Of a stretch of 64,000 nucleotides of DNA, positions 31,969 through 45,871 are shown piece by piece (the first letter of the stretch is position 1; every line of letters starts with the position of its first letter). Source of the stretch: a virus (lineage: Duplodnaviria; Caudoviricetes); IMG/VR virus record IMGVR_UViG_3300037501_000255. One strand, 5' to 3'. The notes beneath the pieces were generated by a model. It was not told the DNA's origin and did no database searches. It saw only the letters and a list, made by a program, of their open reading frames with translations. Both the position numbers and the translations under genes were made by a program.

Positions 31969-34900
31969 AAATATACCCTTATTGTTTGCCACTTTTATCT
32001 AGCACACACAGCGCCTCTCTTTTGCGAGAGGTAGCTATCCGCCACAGCAGCGCATCTTTAGAGCACGCTCTCTTACGGCACAGATGCCAATAGGTTACAT
32101 AAAAGAGCTGTTACATTATCCCGTTCTCCGTGGTTGTCAGCATTCAGCAACTCGAACATGTCATCGGCACGGCGCGGCATAATTTACCGGTCTTCTTTAT
32201 TATTAAAGATAGACTTCATTAATAATATCAAATTCAGCTTGATAGTATCCGAAAGATGCCTTAAGATCTTTGAGGAATTCATGACTCATCTTGACACGAT
32301 CTTCCTCAGCACGCTGCTTGACCATTAATGCGTGCGCTACTTTGACATCATGCAATTCCCTCGCCAAAGGGAGGCGCCTTATCATGTACGCCTGCCTCAG
32401 TACCAATGCTAATATGCCATTCTTCGGAGTAGGTTCGGAATATTGCCCACCCCCCAATGCGGATCACATGTCCCGCGCAGAGCTCCTGCGTAATAAATTA
32501 TTTGTTTGTATCTTCTGATTCATCGGTTTGACGAAAATCATCATGCTGGCTAAGCATATACTTGATGGCAGAGATCACGTACTGCGTTGCTATCTCTGAG
32601 GTAAACTCTTCCGCATGCATTGTGGATTTGATTAGTTGCACAGCCTCATCATCAAGCACCCGCACGCGTTTAGCGCATTACGTGGGCCCCAATCCGATTC
32701 ATCTTGAGCTGGTGAGCCAACTCGATATCTGCAGTAGTCATGCGTTCCTTATTGCACAAAACTTGCTGTGTGATAGTAGTAAATTCCCGAGAGATTTCAA
32801 AGCCCTAACTGTGCCACGCAAGATACGGGAGGGCTTCTTATAGCATCAATCGTGCCGCCGCAGATACTTCTTCAGAGGAGGTATCACTGGGCGTTCGTCA
32901 GTGGAGCGGTCACGAGCGGCCTCCAACTGCATAAGGCGGGTAATCTCTTCCCGATGTTGCTCGTTGGGTTTAAATAGCGCAGCCATTTCTTTGATGGTAT
33001 AGAAAAGACGGTGTGGTTTATCGCCAAATCTATATGCGTCGTTAAGTAGATGTCCTACCCATTTACGGAGTGTTTCGTCGTCCACAGCGGTTCCTTATCA
33101 GGCAATAGCCTTTTTAATCCTACCATTCTAGAATAGCCCAATATATCTTTGGGCTCAACCACCTGTGTTGTAAGGTACTCCGGCGAGTCAGTAGGACTCG
33201 GTATGCCGTAATACCGGTATATGCTCGGCCATTTGAAGTACAACACTACCGTTTCACGCGTAACTGTATAGTGATTCTCTGCAAGACTAAACCACAGCCA
33301 CGGTCTACCTTTCCAAATAAATTGCGGAATCAAATCGCGCGTTATGATGTTCGGCAGGTTTTTTGACCTGAGTAAGGCGAGCGGCTATTCGTTGGTGCCT
33401 GGCAATCTCAATATCAGCCAGGTATCTAAAGAAGGGGCGCACTGTTACTCCTGTCTTACAGAATTCCGGCAGTTTCTTATTGCACAAAAGTCCTAGAAAA
33501 CTGGGGGAATTTTTTTCGGTAGGGTCGGATGTTGCACAAGGGTTGAAAAATTGAGCGGCAAATCGGGGTCCCTATAGCACTTTTAACCCCCTTTGGACGC
33601 TCAAATATTTTTTCAAAGACCCTGTTTTCTCACTTTTCGATCGACCCTTCCGGAAAAATCGCAACCTCTTCTGGAAAATTTTCGACCTCTTCGTGTTTTT
33701 CAGCAACCCCCTCCTCAGAAATTGGGGCGGCTTCCCCTTCCTGTTCGGCTTGTTCGCCCATTTCCAGTAGAGCATCAGGGTAGTATGGAAGTGTTCGGGT
33801 AGGCGTGGTCTCTCTAGCTGACCGTGTGACCCGGGGATACTTTCGGAATGCAAATGCTGCTGTAACAAGTGTGCCTAGTGCAGCGGTCATGAGTAGTAGT
33901 TTTCTAATCATTCGGTTTTCCAGAATGGTTTACATGGTGTGGTTAGCTGGTCTTCGGGACTTGGCATTTGCTTTGTGGAGCGGCCAAGTGGGTCTATGAC
34001 ATAGCAGTAGGCATTCTTTCGGTGGTCGTAATTGGTGGCGACGATATAACCTCGGGTGCCAGAGACATGTATGATTTCCTGGTCTTTTTATAGGCCGGTG
34101 GTTCGGGTAGGATGTGTGTGATTTCGAGTGGGGCAACTTGCAGATCGTGTGAGGGAGGGGGTCATCTACATTGCGCACATTGTAATAGCCGGTGTCTCGG
34201 CTATACTCAAGCACTCGATACACTCCTTCGCCGATGTAGCTTTGTAAGGTTACGAAGTCTTCGGGATTGGGGTACATATTTTCACCAGTTTCTCGTAGTG
34301 GGTGTCGGCAACCCAACCGGGTTTGTAATTCTCCCATAGCACAAAAACTCGTTCTCAGAGGCGGGGAGGGTAGGAGTTGTCTATGTATTCTTCGTAAATT
34401 TCTGCAATGACACCTACTAGACACTCGTGTTCGCGGTTGGGGACATCAGCGCTATGGAACCAAGCTACTCGATCTCCGATTCGGAAGGGGTTTTTGTGGT
34501 GCAGCATTTGATTAACTCCAATTCATGAAACCAGTAGGGCCCATCGGGAATTTGGTTTCCTAAATAATCAAATAAATCAAGATAATAGGTCCAACCTGAT
34601 GGTCCGCGCCACCCTTCGCCAGCTACATTAGCTGTATCGTCATCGCGCCACATTGGGTAGCTATAGACTATCCCGTAAGCAGCAGTTGTAAACAGCCAGT
34701 CCATACTGGTGTCGTAGAATTCTGTGGCGGTAATATATACCTTATCACCCCGCTTCAGCGTAGGCCGTTGTGTTATTTCTGGCAGCATTCTATAAGCTCC
34801 AGTTCGTGGTAGTGGGCTTAATCGAAGAATTAGTTATTATCAATAATTTCAAGATGATACCATCACTGTTACAACCAGACACTTCAGCGATTCCCTCATC

Positions 34901-35029
34901 GTCTTCGTATCCAGCCACCGAGTCTCATGCATTGCTCTGGCCCGATAACCGGTTGCAGTTAGCATGGAGGGTTCAGTAAATTCGTTTTTAATTATATATA
35001 CCCAGTTACCACGCTTGAAGCGGGGTGAC

Positions 35030-35338
35030 TCACTCATTTGCTGGCCCATCGATAGCTACCATCATTACCTGGTCATTACAAGGAACAAGGACAAAATTAG
35101 TTGCCCCAGCTATAGTTGCCGCAAAGTGACAAAGGTCAGTCCTAGTATCATGAAAGTAGAAGCTTGCCTTAAAGCTCTCAGCCTCGTAGTAGTGGGCAGG
35201 GCGGGAGGTAGGCGAGGGTGGCCGTGGAGTGATCCCGCAGCCGATCAGCAGGGCCAGCATAGCCACCACGCCAACCATCATCAACACGCCCGTAAAGGTA
35301 GCAAAGAGAACTCGCTCAATATTAATGCTCATAGACAC
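35030..35338 (-). CDS. Putative membrane/lipoprotein
   Basis: Hydrophobic N-terminus ending LLIGC; YFHDTRTDLC...VPC. Confidence 0.55.
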   Translation of the reverse strand: MSMSINIERVLFATFTGVLMMVGVVAMLALLIGCGITPRPPSPTSRPAHYYEAESFKASFYFHDTRTDLCHFAATIAGATNFVLVPCNDQVMMVAIDGPANE

Positions 35339-35392
35339 TCCTGGGTTCTCGGGCAGATTCGCTCCGAGTATGTAGCGGTGTACCTAGTGAGG

Positions 35393-35402
35393 TAATTAAT
35401 TA
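35393..35402. promoter_or_regulatory. TAATTAATTA motif
   Basis: Exact copy about 55 bp upstream of ORF 35030..35338. Confidence 0.5.
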
Positions 35403-35674
35403 TTGGTCCTGTCTGTACGGCAAGGTATGTCCCGCGCACGCATACGCGCGATCGCGCACGATCAGTAGGTGTGAACGGATGTTCATAATGTAAGTTATTT
35501 ATTAACTGCCAGATAGGGTATACACTGAGGGCAGTAGAGATCAGGTAGGAGGGCCGGAGTTCATGGAGTATATTCCCCCGGCGGCCCCGTGATCTTATAG
35601 ATCGCTTTTTTCCCAAAAATATTTGAAACCGTGGACTCTAAACTATTATTGCTACCAGCAGGAGTTAATGTTAG

Positions 35675-35684
35675 TAATTAATTA
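35675..35684. promoter_or_regulatory. TAATTAATTA motif
   Basis: Exact copy in a long non-coding stretch. Confidence 0.5.
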
Positions 35685-35941
35685 ACCGAAAAAGTTTCGA
35701 CACTACCCCCTTTTGCAAAACCATATGCCTATTACGAGGCATGCGTGGGCCCTAAGACGGCCTGTAATTTTTGCTAATGGGGTCAGCAAAGATCGGGTGA
35801 GAGGACCCTCATGCTCCCGCGTTTATTTGCGTGCTTTTTGACGCTCTCGCTTCTGGTTATTCTTAAGCGGAGGATGGCAGAGCCCGCAGTCTTGGTGGCC
35901 GGCGATGTTAGGGCGGCGAGTGCGTTTATATCCAGGCTTTT

Positions 35942-36220
35942 TCATGTGGACACACCTTGGCGGATAGCGAGGGCCTCATCTTGCGTGAGGCTCCTGGGTT
36001 GCGGCTCCACGATAGGCTCCTCAGGAGCCATATCAGCACGGGCATGGGCTTTGCCGCACTCAGGGTGGAAGCGAACGGTGTTAATCATACCGTCCTCCAC
36101 ATACCGCTGCTCGCGATATTTCTCACCCTTTTTGATATGGGCCCAGCACCACATGCACTGCCAGATTGAAGATGTCCCAGGGCGGTGTGCGACGCGAGTG
36201 ATATCAGCAAGTACAGTCAT
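35942..36220 (-). CDS. Hypothetical protein with CxxC...H-x-x-C
   Basis: CMWCWAHIKKGEKY...RFHPEC. Confidence 0.65.
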   Translation of the reverse strand: MTVLADITRVAHRPGTSSIWQCMWCWAHIKKGEKYREQRYVEDGMINTVRFHPECGKAHARADMAPEEPIVEPQPRSLTQDEALAIRQGVST

Positions 36221-36424
36221 CTATTTATCCGCTGTTCCAATTTCTCTAGGAAAACCGTGTACCCAGGGAGGTGTTCACGGATAATGTCCTCAGCCTCGTC
36301 AAGCAGGAGCTCGACCTCGGTAAGTTCGGCTTTAAGACGATTGACGTAGTGAGAGCCTTTGGATTCTCCGGGATTTTAATGGGGTGTGCGCAGGGCCCAT
36401 CATGTCCTTCCGCGCGCGTGTGGC

Positions 36425-36900
36425 TCAGACCGGATCGATCAGGCCGACCAGGGTGCGCACGCCGAAGCCGACGCCGCCCTTGGCGATGTAGCCCCACTCC
36501 TTGTCGGTGTCCGCCGGACCCGCGGCCAACGAGAAACGGCTGCGCACCGTCGGCCGTCCAGGTGCCACCTCCGCTCATGCCACCCAGATCGGGCACCGCT
36601 TCGACCTCGCCGGTACGCGGATCGATGGCCTCTGGCCCTAGCGTGATGGGCAGGGCTGCGGGCCGTTGGTCGTCGACAGCCGCAGGGTCGTAAACACTCT
36701 CCGCGACGAGTCCGAGGTGACGGCGCATCCCGGGGAGCAGGTCGCTCCGCTGCGCCGCCGGGACCCCGCTGAGCAAGAACGGGAGTGGAACCTCCGGCAA
36801 CTCCCGCGCGACGAAGACCGCCAAGGCGTCCGCGTCGACCGCCCGCCCCGACAGCGGCACGCTACCCATGGCAGTCGACTCGACCTCAGCGCGATCTATC
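36425..36900 (-). pseudogene. 3' fragment of a bacterial trypsin-like serine protease
   Basis: ...VPDLGGMSGGGTW (GxSGG nucleophile-type motif); shifted frame ends DKEWGYIAKGGVGFGVRTLVGLIDPV*; no start. Confidence 0.4.
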
Positions 36901-37224
36901 TCGATCCGCGACGGCGCGCCCGCGGATCGCGCCGGCGTGAAGGCGCAGGACAAGATCGTGAAGATCGGCGAGGAGTCCACGGTCAACATGGGCCTCGACG
37001 AGGCCGTCGAGCGCCTGCGCGGCAAGCCCGGCACGCCCGTGGTGATCTGGATTCTGCGCAAGGGCTGGGAGGAGCCGCAGCGCTTCGAGATCGTGCGCGA
37101 CATCATCAAGATCGACTCGGTGACGAGCCAGCTCCTCGCGATCGCGCCCGCGGTCCAGGGCAAGGACGCCAAGCCCGCGAAGGACGCCCGCGATCCCAAG
37201 GAGGCGCCGCGCGTCGGCTACGTG
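36900..37224 (+). pseudogene. Internal fragment (PDZ region) of a carboxyl-terminal processing protease, S41 family
   Basis: DGAPADRAGVKAQDKIVKIGEESTVNMGLDEAVERLRGKPGTPVVIWILRKGWEEPQRFEIVRDIIKIDSVTSQLL...RVGYV. Confidence 0.85.
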
Positions 37225-37826
37225 AATCTTCCGCTTTGAGTTTGCGGCGGGCCCATCTGCGGAGCGCCGGCCTTCTCTTGTGGTGATAGCGATTGCAGCA
37301 GTCGCAGTGCATTCCGCCAGGACCACGCTTTCCATGCATGATTTTTGCCATCGGATCAGCCTGTGTCCTCCAAAAGAAAACCAGCGGGGTTGGCTACCCG
37401 CATCTCCCGGATACAATCCGGGGCTTTAATTAAGCTATGGTTAAGGGATTGGTCTAAAAGGCGTCGGTGGGGCATTTGTTTTCAACCATAGAAAGATAAC
37501 CCGCTAACTGTCGGACCAAAAGAGAGTCGGGTCAAAAGAGCGGCTATGGGGATTGTCTGGTAAATATAGATAACCCATGTGCCTGCAGACCCAGAAAAGG
37601 TGCGATACGGTAGTTGCGGCGGCATCACAACCCCGTAATTTTTACGATACATCTGTCTGGTATTCAACTTTCCGGCGTGTAGTGCGGCGCCTGGAACTTT
37701 ACTCGTCAGAACAGATTATCCTTGCCCTTACCTCGCTACCGTATCGCAGGGGTAGTATGGGACGAGGTGGGTGGTTGGACGCCAACTATTTAACTTGTTC
37801 AGCGTCAGCGACGGGGACCACGCCCG

Positions 37827-38141
37827 TCACGCGTAGTTGGTCTCCATATTCGGCGGGCTGTAAAGCCACTGGTGGTAGGTCAACTCCACCCTGCGTCCCG
37901 TGCGCATGGCCTCCTGTACCTGTGCCACTGCCTCAGGTTCGACCGTAAAGGTGAATTTCTCAGCCTGCACAGCCGACATACCAGCAGGAAGAGCCATCAA
38001 CAACTCCCCCTCCCAGGACTTGAGGATCACACCTTTTTCTGAGAGCTTGGTGACCACACCCACACGGGTGCCAGTCGAGTAATTGGGAAAGCAGGCTGAG
38101 AGACCCGCCGCAAACAAAACTGCCAACATCATACGCTTCAT
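37827..38141 (-). CDS. Conserved phage lipoprotein
   Basis: Lipobox LSAC; YSTGTRVGVVTKLSEKG...KSWEGEL...V.LTYHQ. Confidence 0.75.
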   Translation of the reverse strand: MKRMMLAVLFAAGLSACFPNYSTGTRVGVVTKLSEKGVILKSWEGELLMALPAGMSAVQAEKFTFTVEPEAVAQVQEAMRTGRRVELTYHQWLYSPPNMETNYA

Positions 38142-38149
38142 GTATTCTC

Positions 38150-38977
38150 CTATTCAAAATCGCTGTCATCCAGTGCCAACACCCGCTGCTCTTGCTGCTT
38201 TGCCGCCAGTTTGGCCGCCCGCTTCGCCTTGCGCTTTTTATTCTTGGGGCTATCCTCGGTACGGAAGCTCCACTTATCATATCCGTGTGCATGTGCTTTC
38301 AATTCATCAGTAGTCTTGGGGATAGGATTAACCTGCTGCGCAAGGTTATTGCCCAGGAACATTGAAAGCTCCTGGTAAGCAGTGAATGGGTCCATAACCG
38401 TATGAAAATTAAGCAGACGCAAATTGGGATTGATGAGGAGAGTTTTCACCGCAATCACGGGGCCTTTTCACGGATGAATGCCTCATCATCAATTTTACCG
38501 TGGGTTTTCATATGTTCGTGCCACGCTTCCCAGGTGGCGACATTCAATGCCCCCAACCACCACCGTGGGGTCCAGGAGTGTGAGACTTCTTACCCGCCAG
38601 CGCAACCAGCATTTCCTTGAGTGGGTCGGTCAGATGCCGGTAGCCGGTCTCACCGTTGTAGCTCTTAATCTTTTTATTGAGTGCCGACACAATCTGGGCA
38701 AGAGTATAACAAACGGTATCGGAAACAATCCAGAACGGATACGCTCTGCCACAGAATGCTACACAACCCATCTCCGACCGGCCTCGGGGACTACCATAGC
38801 CCCATCGGCTGTCCCCGGGCATGTGCGGCTGCAGGAGAGGCATGACATGATTGGCCGCCCAGCTCCTCTCCTTGGTTTCGTACTCGGCAGGCTGGCGCAA
38901 GTAGAAGGGGTGTGGGTCCCGGTCATTGGCCAGAACCACATCATAGTAGTCGCGGAAGGGGGGCTGGCGATTTTCAT
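38150..38977 (-). pseudogene. Conserved jumbo-phage hypothetical protein in three frames
   Basis: MKIASPP.YYDDV / ...VAFCGRAYPF... / ...MDPFTAYQELSMFLGN...AHGYDKWSFR. Confidence 0.6.
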
Positions 38978-39057
38978 GACATCTTCCTCATCGTCATACG
39001 GCACCGCAGAATGTCATAGCCGTACTAACGCTCGGCCTCAACCCAAAACACGTCCTG

Positions 39058-39285
39058 CTAGACCCAAGAGGCCCTAGAGGCCCCAGAGGCCCCAGAGGCC
39101 CCAGAGGCCCAAGAGGCCCTAGAGGCCCCAGAGGCCCCAGAGGCCCCAGAGGCCCAAGAGGCCCCAGAGGCCCAAGAGGCCCCAGAGGCCCCAGAGGCCC
39201 CAGAGGCCCAAGAGGCCCCAGAGGCCCCAGAGGCCCCAGAGGCCCTAGAGGCCCCGGAATAAAGAAGAGCAACAGGATTAATCAT
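39058..39285 (-). CDS. Low-complexity peptide MINPVALLY-(S[G/W/R]A)n, 75 aa
   Basis: ORF track; starts 3 nt after the stop of the paralog upstream. Confidence 0.55.
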
Positions 39286-39288
39286 ATA

Positions 39289-39432
39289 TCACCCAGAGGC
39301 CCTAGAAGGCCCAGAGGCCCCAGAGGCCCCAGAGGCCCCAGAGGCCCCAGAGGCCCAAGAGGCCCAAGAGGCCCCAGAGGCCCAAGAGGCCCAAGAGGCC
39401 CCGGAATAAAGAAGAGCAACAGGATTAATCAT
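39289..39432 (-). CDS. Low-complexity peptide MINPVALLY-(S[G/W/R]A)n, 47 aa
   Basis: Manual translation [47 protein letters not shown]. Confidence 0.5.
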
Positions 39433-39514
39433 ATATCACCCAGAGGCCCTAAAATAATACAAAATGATTTATCATTAAAATGAAAGCCCTAGGAAGGTTA
39501 TCCTCCTCATGTTG

Positions 39515-44544: not shown

Positions 44545-44753
44545 TACTACTCCTGTAGGAAGAGGGGGGGGGAGAACTTATCGCTTCATCAGTACGCGTC
44601 CGTCACGATATGCGCGATATTAAATCGCTCGTGTTTGTGGCGCTGCGACGGGTGCTTGACGTTATCGATGACTTCAATGGAGAGCGACCAAGGCCGCTCC
44701 GCATCTAGGTAGGACCGGAGGTTTGCACCTCCGGCGCCTGCCATGCAACATGC

Positions 44754-45077
44754 TCAGGTGCCGATCGCCTCGGCAGCCTGAATGCCCTCGGCCAGCGACG
44801 CCTGCAGCGCCTCGAGCCGCTCGATCAGATCAGGCAGCTCACGAGCCGGGAGACGGCTCACCGCCGACAGGTCGAGGACAGCCCCACCAGCCCCGCGCGC
44901 CTTCTTGCCCTTGTTCGAGGCAACGAACGCACGGTAGTTCGCAATCAGGGCCACGCGACCGGCAGGCACCTTAGCCTCACCGTTGGCCTCGTTGCGGAGC
45001 ACGACCGGGTGCGAGAACACAGTCTCGACAACCGAATCACCAGTCTGAATCACCTCTGCAGCAAACGCAATCGTCAT
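44754..45077 (-). CDS. Hypothetical protein, tandem paralog A
   Basis: 107 aa; own promoter and GGAG RBS. Confidence 0.75.
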   Translation of the reverse strand: MTIAFAAEVIQTGDSVVETVFSHPVVLRNEANGEAKVPAGRVALIANYRAFVASNKGKKARGAGGAVLDLSAVSRLPARELPDLIERLEALQASLAEGIQAAEAIGT

Positions 45078-45100
45078 GTCTCACTCCTTGGTTGCGGGCT

Positions 45101-45514
45101 TCATGCCCGACGCGGAAAGAATAGCGAATAATTCTGCTCTGTCAAGGGAAGGGGGCTCGACCCGGATGAAACCAGATCAGGCCCCCTCCCCCTCCCCTCA
45201 CAGGCCTCGGCCTGCTCGATACCCATCTCAAGGCTATCCTGAAGCTCGCGCAGCTTCGCAATCAGATCAGGCAGCTCACGAGCCGGGAGACGGCTCACCG
45301 CCGACAGGTCGAGGACAGCCTGACCGGCACCGCGAGCCTTCTTGCCCTTGCCGGACTGGTTGAAGGCGCGGTAGTTCGCAATCAGACCGATGACACCGGC
45401 GGGGATCGCCTTCGCCTCGGCGGTCGCCTCGTTGCGGAGTGCAACGGGACGAGCGAACACGCTCTCAACAACGGACTCGGACGCGGTAGCGGTCTCAGAC
45501 GTGAACATCACCAT
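45101..45514 (-). CDS. Hypothetical protein, tandem paralog B (3' end uncertain)
   Basis: Aligns end to end with paralog A; own promoter. Confidence 0.7.
   Translation of the reverse strand: MVMFTSETATASESVVESVFARPVALRNEATAEAKAIPAGVIGLIANYRAFNQSGKGKKARGAGQAVLDLSAVSRLPARELPDLIAKLRELQDSLEMGIEQAEACEGRGRGPDLVSSGSSPLPLTEQNYSLFFPRRA
45118..45145 (-). promoter_or_regulatory. Sigma70-like promoter TTGACA-N16-TATTCT
   Basis: Read directly. Confidence 0.7.
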
Positions 45515-45591
45515 ACGTTTCTCTCTCTTTCTGGCCCATCGGGCCGGGGTCACTTCCAACTGGTCAGGACCACCCTGCCAGCCACGCAAAC

Positions 45592-45619
45592 AGAATAGCG
45601 ACCAACCCAGATCTGTCAA
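45592..45619 (-). promoter_or_regulatory. Sigma70-like promoter TTGACA-N16-TATTCT
   Basis: Read directly. Confidence 0.7.
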
Positions 45620-45871
45620 GCAGGTCGCTTGTGTTTCTTGGATCTGATCCGTGCATTAACTGGCACAGATCCTGCAGGGGGTGCAAGCCCCGTGCCAAGA
45701 TTTATGCGACTTCCTCCTCATTTGGATCTGTGCAAATGTGCGCAGGATGCGAAAGTCCTGCAGCGTCTGCAAGATCCAAAGATATCGAGCGTTAACTACT
45801 GCCAGGTCGGATAGCAAGTGCTTCATCACTCACAGCAAATCTCCATGATTTCCGCAAGTGTGCGGTCTAGA

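Follow-up and report, generated by a model that had tools for sequence, protein, structure and literature searches.

A composite patch of truncated peptidase genes, probably captured from a Myxococcota chromosome, in an uncultured freshwater jumbo phage

A foreign patch in a jumbo phage genome

A stretch of 804 bp in an uncultured freshwater jumbo phage (Duplodnaviria; Caudoviricetes; IMG/VR record IMGVR_UViG_3300037501_000255, of which 64,000 nucleotides, hereafter the window, were analysed) is best read as a real and apparently fixed scar of host DNA, i.e., a composite of three truncated peptidase gene pieces brought in by illegitimate recombination with a Myxococcota chromosome, a reading to which we assign a probability of roughly 0.78. 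The patch (36421-37224) has a GC content of 70.3% against 51.0% in the rest of the window, and GC within it stays between 0.64 and 0.73 per 200-bp window (whole-window mean 0.513, standard deviation 0.058). Coding similarity in 36421-37224 is exclusively to truncated peptidase genes, arranged from left to right as pieces A (minus strand), B (minus) and C (plus), with a strand switch at about 36897, and all three lack gene ends. The original prediction for this region, made from the letters of the window, had described 804 bp of bacterial DNA composed of two gene fragments. The step in GC and the Myxococcota matches agree with the bacterial block, and the plus-strand half and the strand switch stand; the pieces, however, number three, as the minus half, taken then for a single trypsin-like 3' fragment, consists of the 3' end of a leucyl aminopeptidase (LAP) gene (A) and an internal protease fragment (B). 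The patch is a non-functional scar of presumed host chromosomal DNA, encoding nothing useful and carried as junk.

Recovery from two metagenomes

Whether the patch belongs to the phage was judged from Logan contigs, rather than raw reads, of two sequencing runs, X1 (the probable source run) and X2 (from another study and sample, likewise a 2020 freshwater metagenome). In X1, an independent assembly at k=31 yielded a contig of 3512 bp (depth 21.5) that covers 35581-39092 with 0 differences and is unbranched at both ends of the patch, over which the summed depth is 21.5-23.1, without a spike. In X2 the same phage is present at a depth of about 2-3x and a 0.25 share of the words is found; stretches that X2 leaves uncovered were not counted as absence. 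Here the left joint (36420/36421) is bridged by a 151-bp contig spanning 36316-36466 (105 + 46 bases) and the right joint (37224/37225) by another of 151 bp spanning 37192-37342 (33 + 118 bases), both with 0 differences. What X2 shows is the same phage at low coverage, together with conserved segments from bacteria; it does not amount to a second allele.

A chimeric molecule, or a mis-assembly of bacterial reads into the phage contig, would account for the abrupt change in composition, and related bacterial sequences do occur in the same samples as short contigs with loose ends at 90-99% identity. Against this, both junctions are found at the depth of their flanks in the k=31 assembly and at 100% identity in a run from another study, no branching or depth spike marks the patch in X1, and an overlap of 4-6 bp is too short to mislead a de Bruijn graph at k=31. 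We regard an artefact as extremely improbable: because each junction is spanned in both runs, which stem from two studies, a library chimera or mis-assembly is practically excluded and the patch is truly present in the phage genome. The original prediction had likewise argued against a library chimera. Of the signs that it named for one, the contigs showed neither a lack of support at the junctions nor a spike in coverage with a 100% match to some abundant organism sequenced alongside. Its description of the patch as a snapshot fares less well if an ongoing event is meant, as the sequence is identical in both samples and no X1 or X2 Logan contig joins 36420 to 37225, i.e., no empty allele was seen, and the patch is apparently fixed.

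Some features of the X1 assembly lie outside the patch. A 95-kb Logan contig has a further match to the ~70-bp stretch 35565-35636 at a distance of about 72 kb (with 4 differences and 1 gap), suggesting that a short repeat is dispersed in the phage genome; Logan contigs break at 35565-35636, and one contig carries a 1-base deletion variant at 35582. The mean depths of adjacent X1 contigs across 34000-39500 are 12.9 (the 95-kb contig), 21.5 (the patch-bearing 3.5-kb contig) and 26.6 (further right), a hint that two related strains may share the patch-bearing segment, contig means being a poor measure.

Origin of the three pieces

Piece A (36421-36524, minus) comprises the last 33 codons of a gene (AAGPADTDKEWGYIAKGGVGFGVRTLVGLIDPV), its TGA stop at 36425-36427 and 4 nt downstream, and its translation ends in ...AGPADTDKEWGYIAKGGVGFGVRTLVGLIDPV before the stop. 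NCBIfam leucyl aminopeptidase models match it at model positions 462-490 of 494 (E-value 4e-4), and tblastn against LAP C-termini gave 77-84% identity in the six closest loci of Myxococcota metagenome-assembled genomes (MAGs) and 59-84% over all eight (E-values down to 5e-14). At the nucleotide level (blastn) identity is 76-81% over ~93-103 nt, with 89% over 47 nt in one locus (L011). The full-length relative belongs to Peptidase_M17 (PF00883, 3e-121), and both the M17 C-terminal motif (...IAGPA...KGG.GFGVRTLV...) and the stop of piece A align with M17 genes. By these matches, piece A is assigned to an M17 leucyl aminopeptidase and not to a trypsin-like gene.

Piece C (36898-37224, plus) scores as a PDZ domain (PF17820, 1.5e-9) and matches TIGR03900 with 3.6e-30, as against 2e-20 for generic Prc, the TIGR03900 match being that of a fragment and far under the whole-protein cut-off. 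Its top protein matches are 990-1020 aa long, several of them named as MXAN_5808 family; of the ~1000 residues it covers about 180-290, beginning just past the carboxylate-binding GLGI loop. Identity to ~1000-aa Myxococcota peptidases is 64-88% in protein and 84-88% in nucleotides to the MAG loci L001-L005. All 14 Myxococcota genome matches begin at residue 11 of the open reading frame (ORF) that holds the piece, i.e., at nucleotide 36898. Piece C is thereby recognized as a fragment of an S41 peptidase of the MXAN_5808 family, and the plus-strand CtpA/Prc PDZ fragment of the original prediction is confirmed by the two profiles. Where piece C reads ISIRDGA immediately followed by PADRAG, every relative reads ISIRDGALTVISPIDGTPADRAG; the difference amounts to a 30-bp in-frame gap (LTVISPIDGT) between GACGGCGCGC and GACGGCACGC, flanked by 10-bp near-repeats, and is most parsimoniously explained as a 30-bp in-frame deletion in C.

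It could be argued that the patch is functional, the 123-codon plus-strand ORF (36868-37239) giving rise to a free PDZ protein that binds, e.g., C-terminal tags. In its favour, this open frame contains an ATG and gives a PDZ match. In tail-specific proteases, C-terminal tails, among them transfer-messenger RNA (tmRNA) tags, are bound by the PDZ domain, and the phage has its own tmRNA. Yet the GLGI carboxylate-binding loop is left out and ten core residues are probably gone, no Shine-Dalgarno-like sequence precedes the ATG, the ORF runs antisense to the flanking small ORFs, and at 70% GC chance alone should yield open frames. A functional product thus appears exceedingly unlikely to us. The original prediction had seen in the patch how such phages acquire host genes; no usable gene was gained, the three pieces all being truncated.

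Piece B (36525-~36896, minus) corresponds to residues ~101-225 of a rare family of ~280 aa and carries the GMSGG serine motif, without the TAAHC histidine part and the last ~55 residues. Among 1.84 billion representatives a single cluster matches it (P0123, 46% identity, E-value 4e-25), and only one of 401 Myxococcota genomes, the MAG G001, has a homologue (50-51% identity). Full-length homologues carry TAAHC, DAGV and GMSGG, and the look-alikes of the family in the ESM Atlas are Trypsin_2/Trypsin clusters (score 0.97). Pfam gave no match for piece B or its family, the best hit of a PDB search with the family had an E-value of 0.34, and an AlphaFold model of the family was unusable (predicted local distance difference test 34). 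The label "trypsin-like" is therefore reasonable, resting on motifs, and this part of the original prediction can be kept as a putative assignment, while the fragment is an internal piece and not the 3' end that it was taken for.

The homologue in G001 lies on a different contig from the LAP and Prc genes of that genome, beside a tRNA gene, and no overlap is found among its three contigs with LAP, Prc and B. The gene itself (L025, contig C345, 4537-5932) encodes an orphan protease of 275-283 aa at a contig end, next to a tRNA-like gene, with a GC of 0.59 vs 0.64 for its contig; this suggests an island-borne accessory gene. Both full-length members of the B family have a weak PADLOC match to the model of LmuA (Lamassu effector) over the His-motif region (E-values 1e-5 and 5e-5).

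Comparing the halves for a shared genome, a check that the original prediction had proposed, linked A and C. In eight Myxococcota loci (L002, L003, L004, L005, L007, L008, L011 and L014) the 3' end of the LAP gene (minus) lies 3961-4317 bp to the left of the Prc PDZ region (plus), in the same order and relative orientation as A and C in the patch. In all eight, the LAP body, the conserved gene X on the plus strand (with no Pfam family) and the 5' part of Prc take up the interval and leave no room for B. A conserved trio is seen in eight of the loci L001-L014: the M17 aminopeptidase (minus), a plus-strand gene for ~470-650 aa starting with MADLFLHLAFARRLR, and the MXAN_5808 S41 peptidase (plus). 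By our estimate, two random fragments of a ~5-8 Mb genome would give the A-C arrangement by chance about once in 1000; hence A and C derive from one donor locus, on one donor molecule. For C, the best tblastn match is again G001, the one genome in which a true homologue of B was found, an overlap that fits a single donor lineage.

Joints and route of acquisition

Homology at the joints is absent or limited to a few bases. CGTG stands at 36417-36420, where it ends an alternating CG run of the phage (CCGCGCGCGTG), and again at 37221-37224, as can be read directly from the sequence. In the original prediction these two copies were a 4-bp duplication. At the right junction, however, comparison with five relatives reveals that CGTGAA (37221-37226; CGCGCGTGAATCTT) is common to donor and phage site: three of the five read TACGTGAAG (GGC TAC GTG AAG, Gly-Tyr-Val-Lys), the other two read TACGTCAAG (GTC for Val), and the window continues as GGC TAC GTG AAT CTT where the relatives have GGCTACGTGAAG. 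The right CGTG and the following AA are better read as the donor's own conserved codons, i.e., as a 6-bp microhomology and not a target-site duplication, so that the apparent 4-bp duplication is a product of the overlap; under a true target duplication, the agreement in CGTGAA would have a chance of about 1 in 4000 by our estimate. The A/B joint (36524/36525), fixed by nucleotide comparison, has 0-1 bp of homology, and the B/C joint falls within 36894-36898 with at most 3 bp of ambiguity. Donor sequence past the LAP stop is not conserved among the relatives. No phage bases were lost at the insertion.

Profile searches (Pfam, NCBIfam) found no transposase in 36421-37224, and a search for inverted repeats found no arms at both termini of the patch, the best near-terminal pair (I7) beginning 42 nt inside the left end; both absences had been noted in the original prediction. 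A transposable element with target-site duplication was rejected on the grounds of the missing transposase and terminal inverted repeats and of the right CGTG (+AA) being conserved donor codons. Likewise rejected was an RNA-mediated capture through complementary DNA, given that the coding strand of A and B is opposite to that of C, a genomic layout rather than a common mRNA sense. Acquisition without transposase or long homology, as the original prediction had it, is supported, the right, A/B and B/C joints having at most 6 bp.

That prediction had further attributed the patch to degraded host DNA captured at a break by end-joining, which predicts unrelated fragments, yet A and C are neighbours about 4.0-4.3 kb apart in eight loci. 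In a form adapted to three pieces, independent degraded host fragments would have been ligated into a staggered break by non-homologous end joining (NHEJ), the filling-in of a 4-bp overhang producing the CGTG duplication. The presence of CGTG on both sides accords with this, as do the short, truncated pieces, one of them inverted relative to the others, the ATP-dependent DNA ligase (phrog_114) encoded in the phage window and the Ku protein (PF02735) of the donor-like MAG G002. Ku was nevertheless found in only this one of five donor-like MAGs (incomplete genomes). Above all, A and C fall within ~4 kb in native order and orientation, and CGTGAA continues the donor codons, both agreements being rare by the estimates given above. 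We consider ligation of independent fragments improbable.

Instead, we favour serial template switching, tentatively and at somewhat less than even odds; the enzymatic route and its timing we infer. During infection, replicating or broken phage DNA would have recombined with the Myxococcota chromosome, A and C coming from one locus and B from a rare accessory protease gene. One repair or replication synthesis would have left the phage template after ...CGCGCGTG, copied short host stretches by switching templates in series (first A, next B and, on returning to the locus of A, C), skipped 30 bases inside C, and re-annealed on the phage at CGTGAA. Such switching explains the short pieces, the return to the same locus, the 30-base skip and the re-annealing at the point of departure. 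The patch has multiple templated segments, the templates of A and C being 3961-4317 bp apart in native orientation in the eight loci and B lying between them in the patch. A more specific version, i.e., a single replicative event between virus and host of the kind called microhomology-mediated break-induced replication (MMBIR) or "chromoanasynthesis", which took in three host stretches before resuming its own template, seems to us rather doubtful; if true, it would add a route, not documented to date, by which jumbo phages take up host sequence.

The short pieces may also be what is left of a longer one. A contiguous host segment of at least ~4.4 kb, from the LAP 3' end to the Prc PDZ region, would then have been captured and later reduced by deletions, B being filler at a deletion joint or, in the true donor, native between LAP and Prc. 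This directly explains why A and C are collinear with the donor locus, the 30-bp repeat-bounded gap in C resembles an ordinary later deletion, and junk DNA in a headful-limited phage is expected to shrink. However, no fewer than two or three separate events would have to have taken place at one small site; in all eight relatives the interval between LAP and Prc is filled and has no room for B, and in G001 the B gene adjoins a tRNA gene on a different contig. With its GC still at 70%, the patch shows no sign of long residence. We hold long capture followed by decay to be unlikely, if far from negligible.

Several points weigh against the interpretation of the patch as a fixed, composite scar of Myxococcota DNA. 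No near-identical donor genome was found, the best matches reaching 88% (C) and ~80% (A) in nucleotides and 51% in protein (B). Microhomology is seen solely at the right joint and at the 30-bp gap, the donor being unreconstructable at the left, A/B and B/C joints, and MAFFT places no gap in C but accepts six mismatches in a motif that is invariant otherwise. The phage has 51% GC vs ~64-70% in the presumed host. No relative of the phage with an empty site was found in IMG/VR or among Joint Genome Institute (JGI) metagenome contigs; the data on the patch itself come from contigs only, so a minor empty allele may exist, and X1 and X2 could come from one sampling campaign.

The interrupted phage locus and its surroundings

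The patch interrupts a small minus-strand ORF of the phage. Its 5' part of 42 codons (MAKIMHGK...KAEDSR; 37225-37351), delimited from the ORF list and by in-silico excision, at present runs into the patch and forms an 81-aa ORF (37106-37351). On the other side, three-frame translation places the rest of the interrupted ORF (stop at ~36330) in 36220-36420 (minus), together with an out-of-frame ORF of 52 codons (36220-36375, ...HYVNRLKAELTEVELLLDEAEDIIREHLPGYTVFLEKLEQRINR). Excision of the patch gives ...RRWARRKLKAEDSRARKDM..., the flank sequence that the original prediction had expected, and restores a Cys/His-rich, basic ORF of 71 codons (MAKIMHGK...KAEDSRARKDM...SLRQSS, then stop). The prediction had the reading continue into a phage-like ORF coupled by ATGA to the next gene. 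The stop of this ORF (HYVNRLKAELTEVELL...INR), the 52-codon one, does overlap the ATG of the next gene (35942-36220) as ATGA; the ORF lies, however, in another frame than the restored one, has no ATG, GTG or TTG, and could be reached from it only by a frameshift, the restored ORF stopping at 71 codons. X1 and X2 are base-identical across the frame break, which is therefore real. The locus has the look of a small-gene region that is unusual or in decay. In the phage flanks, an imperfect direct repeat of 18 nt (15/18, core GGGCCCATC) stands at 36384-36401 and 37240-37257; in the empty site its copies would be 52 bp apart.

Relatives of this region are scarce. No homologues of the restored 71-aa ORF and the 52-codon ORF were found in the "near" length range searched. 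Neither flanks nor patch had a DNA match among INPHARED phages in near and distant mode, IMG/VR held no relative of the 92-aa neighbour gene, and JGI metagenome contigs contained neither the 28-mer of the left flank nor a relative of piece B. The lipoprotein gene at 37827-38141 has one relative (57%) in IMG/VR, in a phage of 32% GC with which the neighbourhood is not shared. Elsewhere, the window encodes a ClpB-like ATPase, an RNA ligase, a DNA ligase, a CCA-type nucleotidyltransferase, QueC, a tmRNA and 3 tRNAs. Two neighbouring GC-rich (0.64-0.70) minus-strand ORFs of 107 and 172 aa at 44650-45620 are paralogues, sharing ...RPV.LRNEA..EAK.PAG...LIANYRAF...KGKKARGAG.AVLDLSAVSRLPARELPDLI....

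Link to a probable Myxococcota host

The phage tmRNA (18605-18969) encodes the tag ANDNVEFAPVALAA, which is the tag of three donor-like Myxococcota MAGs (ANDNVELALAA; G002, G004 and G005, loci L026-L028) plus an insertion of three residues. The tag-coding nucleotides of phage and MAGs are near-identical save for the 9-nt insertion, at an overall tmRNA identity of 53-57%; the comparison is one of the phage with donor-like MAGs. X2 is also rich in conserved Prc segments from related bacteria. Together with the patch, the tag and this abundance support a host among the Myxococcota, without amounting to proof; that the donor of the patch was also the host we infer. The original prediction had expected the patch to name the host, and the matches of A and C do name a probable group. 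The patch thus provides a concrete clue, with independent support, to the host of an uncultured freshwater jumbo phage, pointing to a Myxococcota lineage represented by MAGs only, and to our knowledge very few phages of Myxococcota are known.

Comparison with known capture and repair systems

Capture of DNA from the host through illegitimate recombination is an established kind of event. The mycobacteriophage Giles reportedly acquired host DNA by this means, as is said to be described by Morris et al. in 2008 (J Bacteriol 190:2172). As in captures of the Giles type, bacterial chromosomal sequence with truncated genes sits here in a phage, no signature of a recombinase or transposase is seen, and composition and similarity point to the host; the present patch differs in being a three-piece composite, two pieces of which are from one locus, with an internal strand switch and in an uncultured jumbo phage. 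A passage in PMC8136500 cites Morris et al. 2008 for the acquisition of host DNA by phages and links gene flow in phages to NHEJ; PMC2597740 likewise lists Morris et al. among its references. In our case the composite structure argues for template switching or stepwise decay as opposed to a simple ligation of random debris, because two of the three pieces share a locus, a microhomology of 6 bp is present and all phage bases are retained.

Insertions of filler DNA or of templated sequence where double-strand breaks are joined are known from Ku/LigD NHEJ, alternative end-joining and, in eukaryotes, synthesis of the polymerase-theta type. The patch resembles such repair joints in its short foreign segments at one site, its microhomology of 0-6 bp and the absence of loss from the recipient. 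It departs from them in that it is known from sequence alone (no break, enzyme or intermediate was observed), in that Ku occurs in one of five donor-like genomes, and in that the donor is another replicon. An insertion sequence or transposon with target-site duplication would share the discrete insert between identical 4-base copies; unlike these, the patch has no transposase or terminal inverted repeats, its content is three truncated pieces of housekeeping or accessory genes, and its right repeat consists of donor codons.

MMBIR and fork stalling and template switching (FoSTeS) are known from amplification in E. coli and from complex human rearrangements, and we know of no demonstration of either in exchanges between phage and host. 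In common with them, the patch combines multiple templated segments, of which two stem from sites separated by a few kb and keep their native orientation, with microhomology at a joint, a short skip between near-repeats and a synthesis that would return to its point of departure; unlike in those cases, a single joint can be checked for microhomology, and the fit is almost as good for a long capture with later deletion. Seen against these systems, the patch is a clean natural example of raw host DNA entering a phage before selection shapes it and, beyond the host clue and the composite structure, junk DNA of a known general kind in an unusually legible form.

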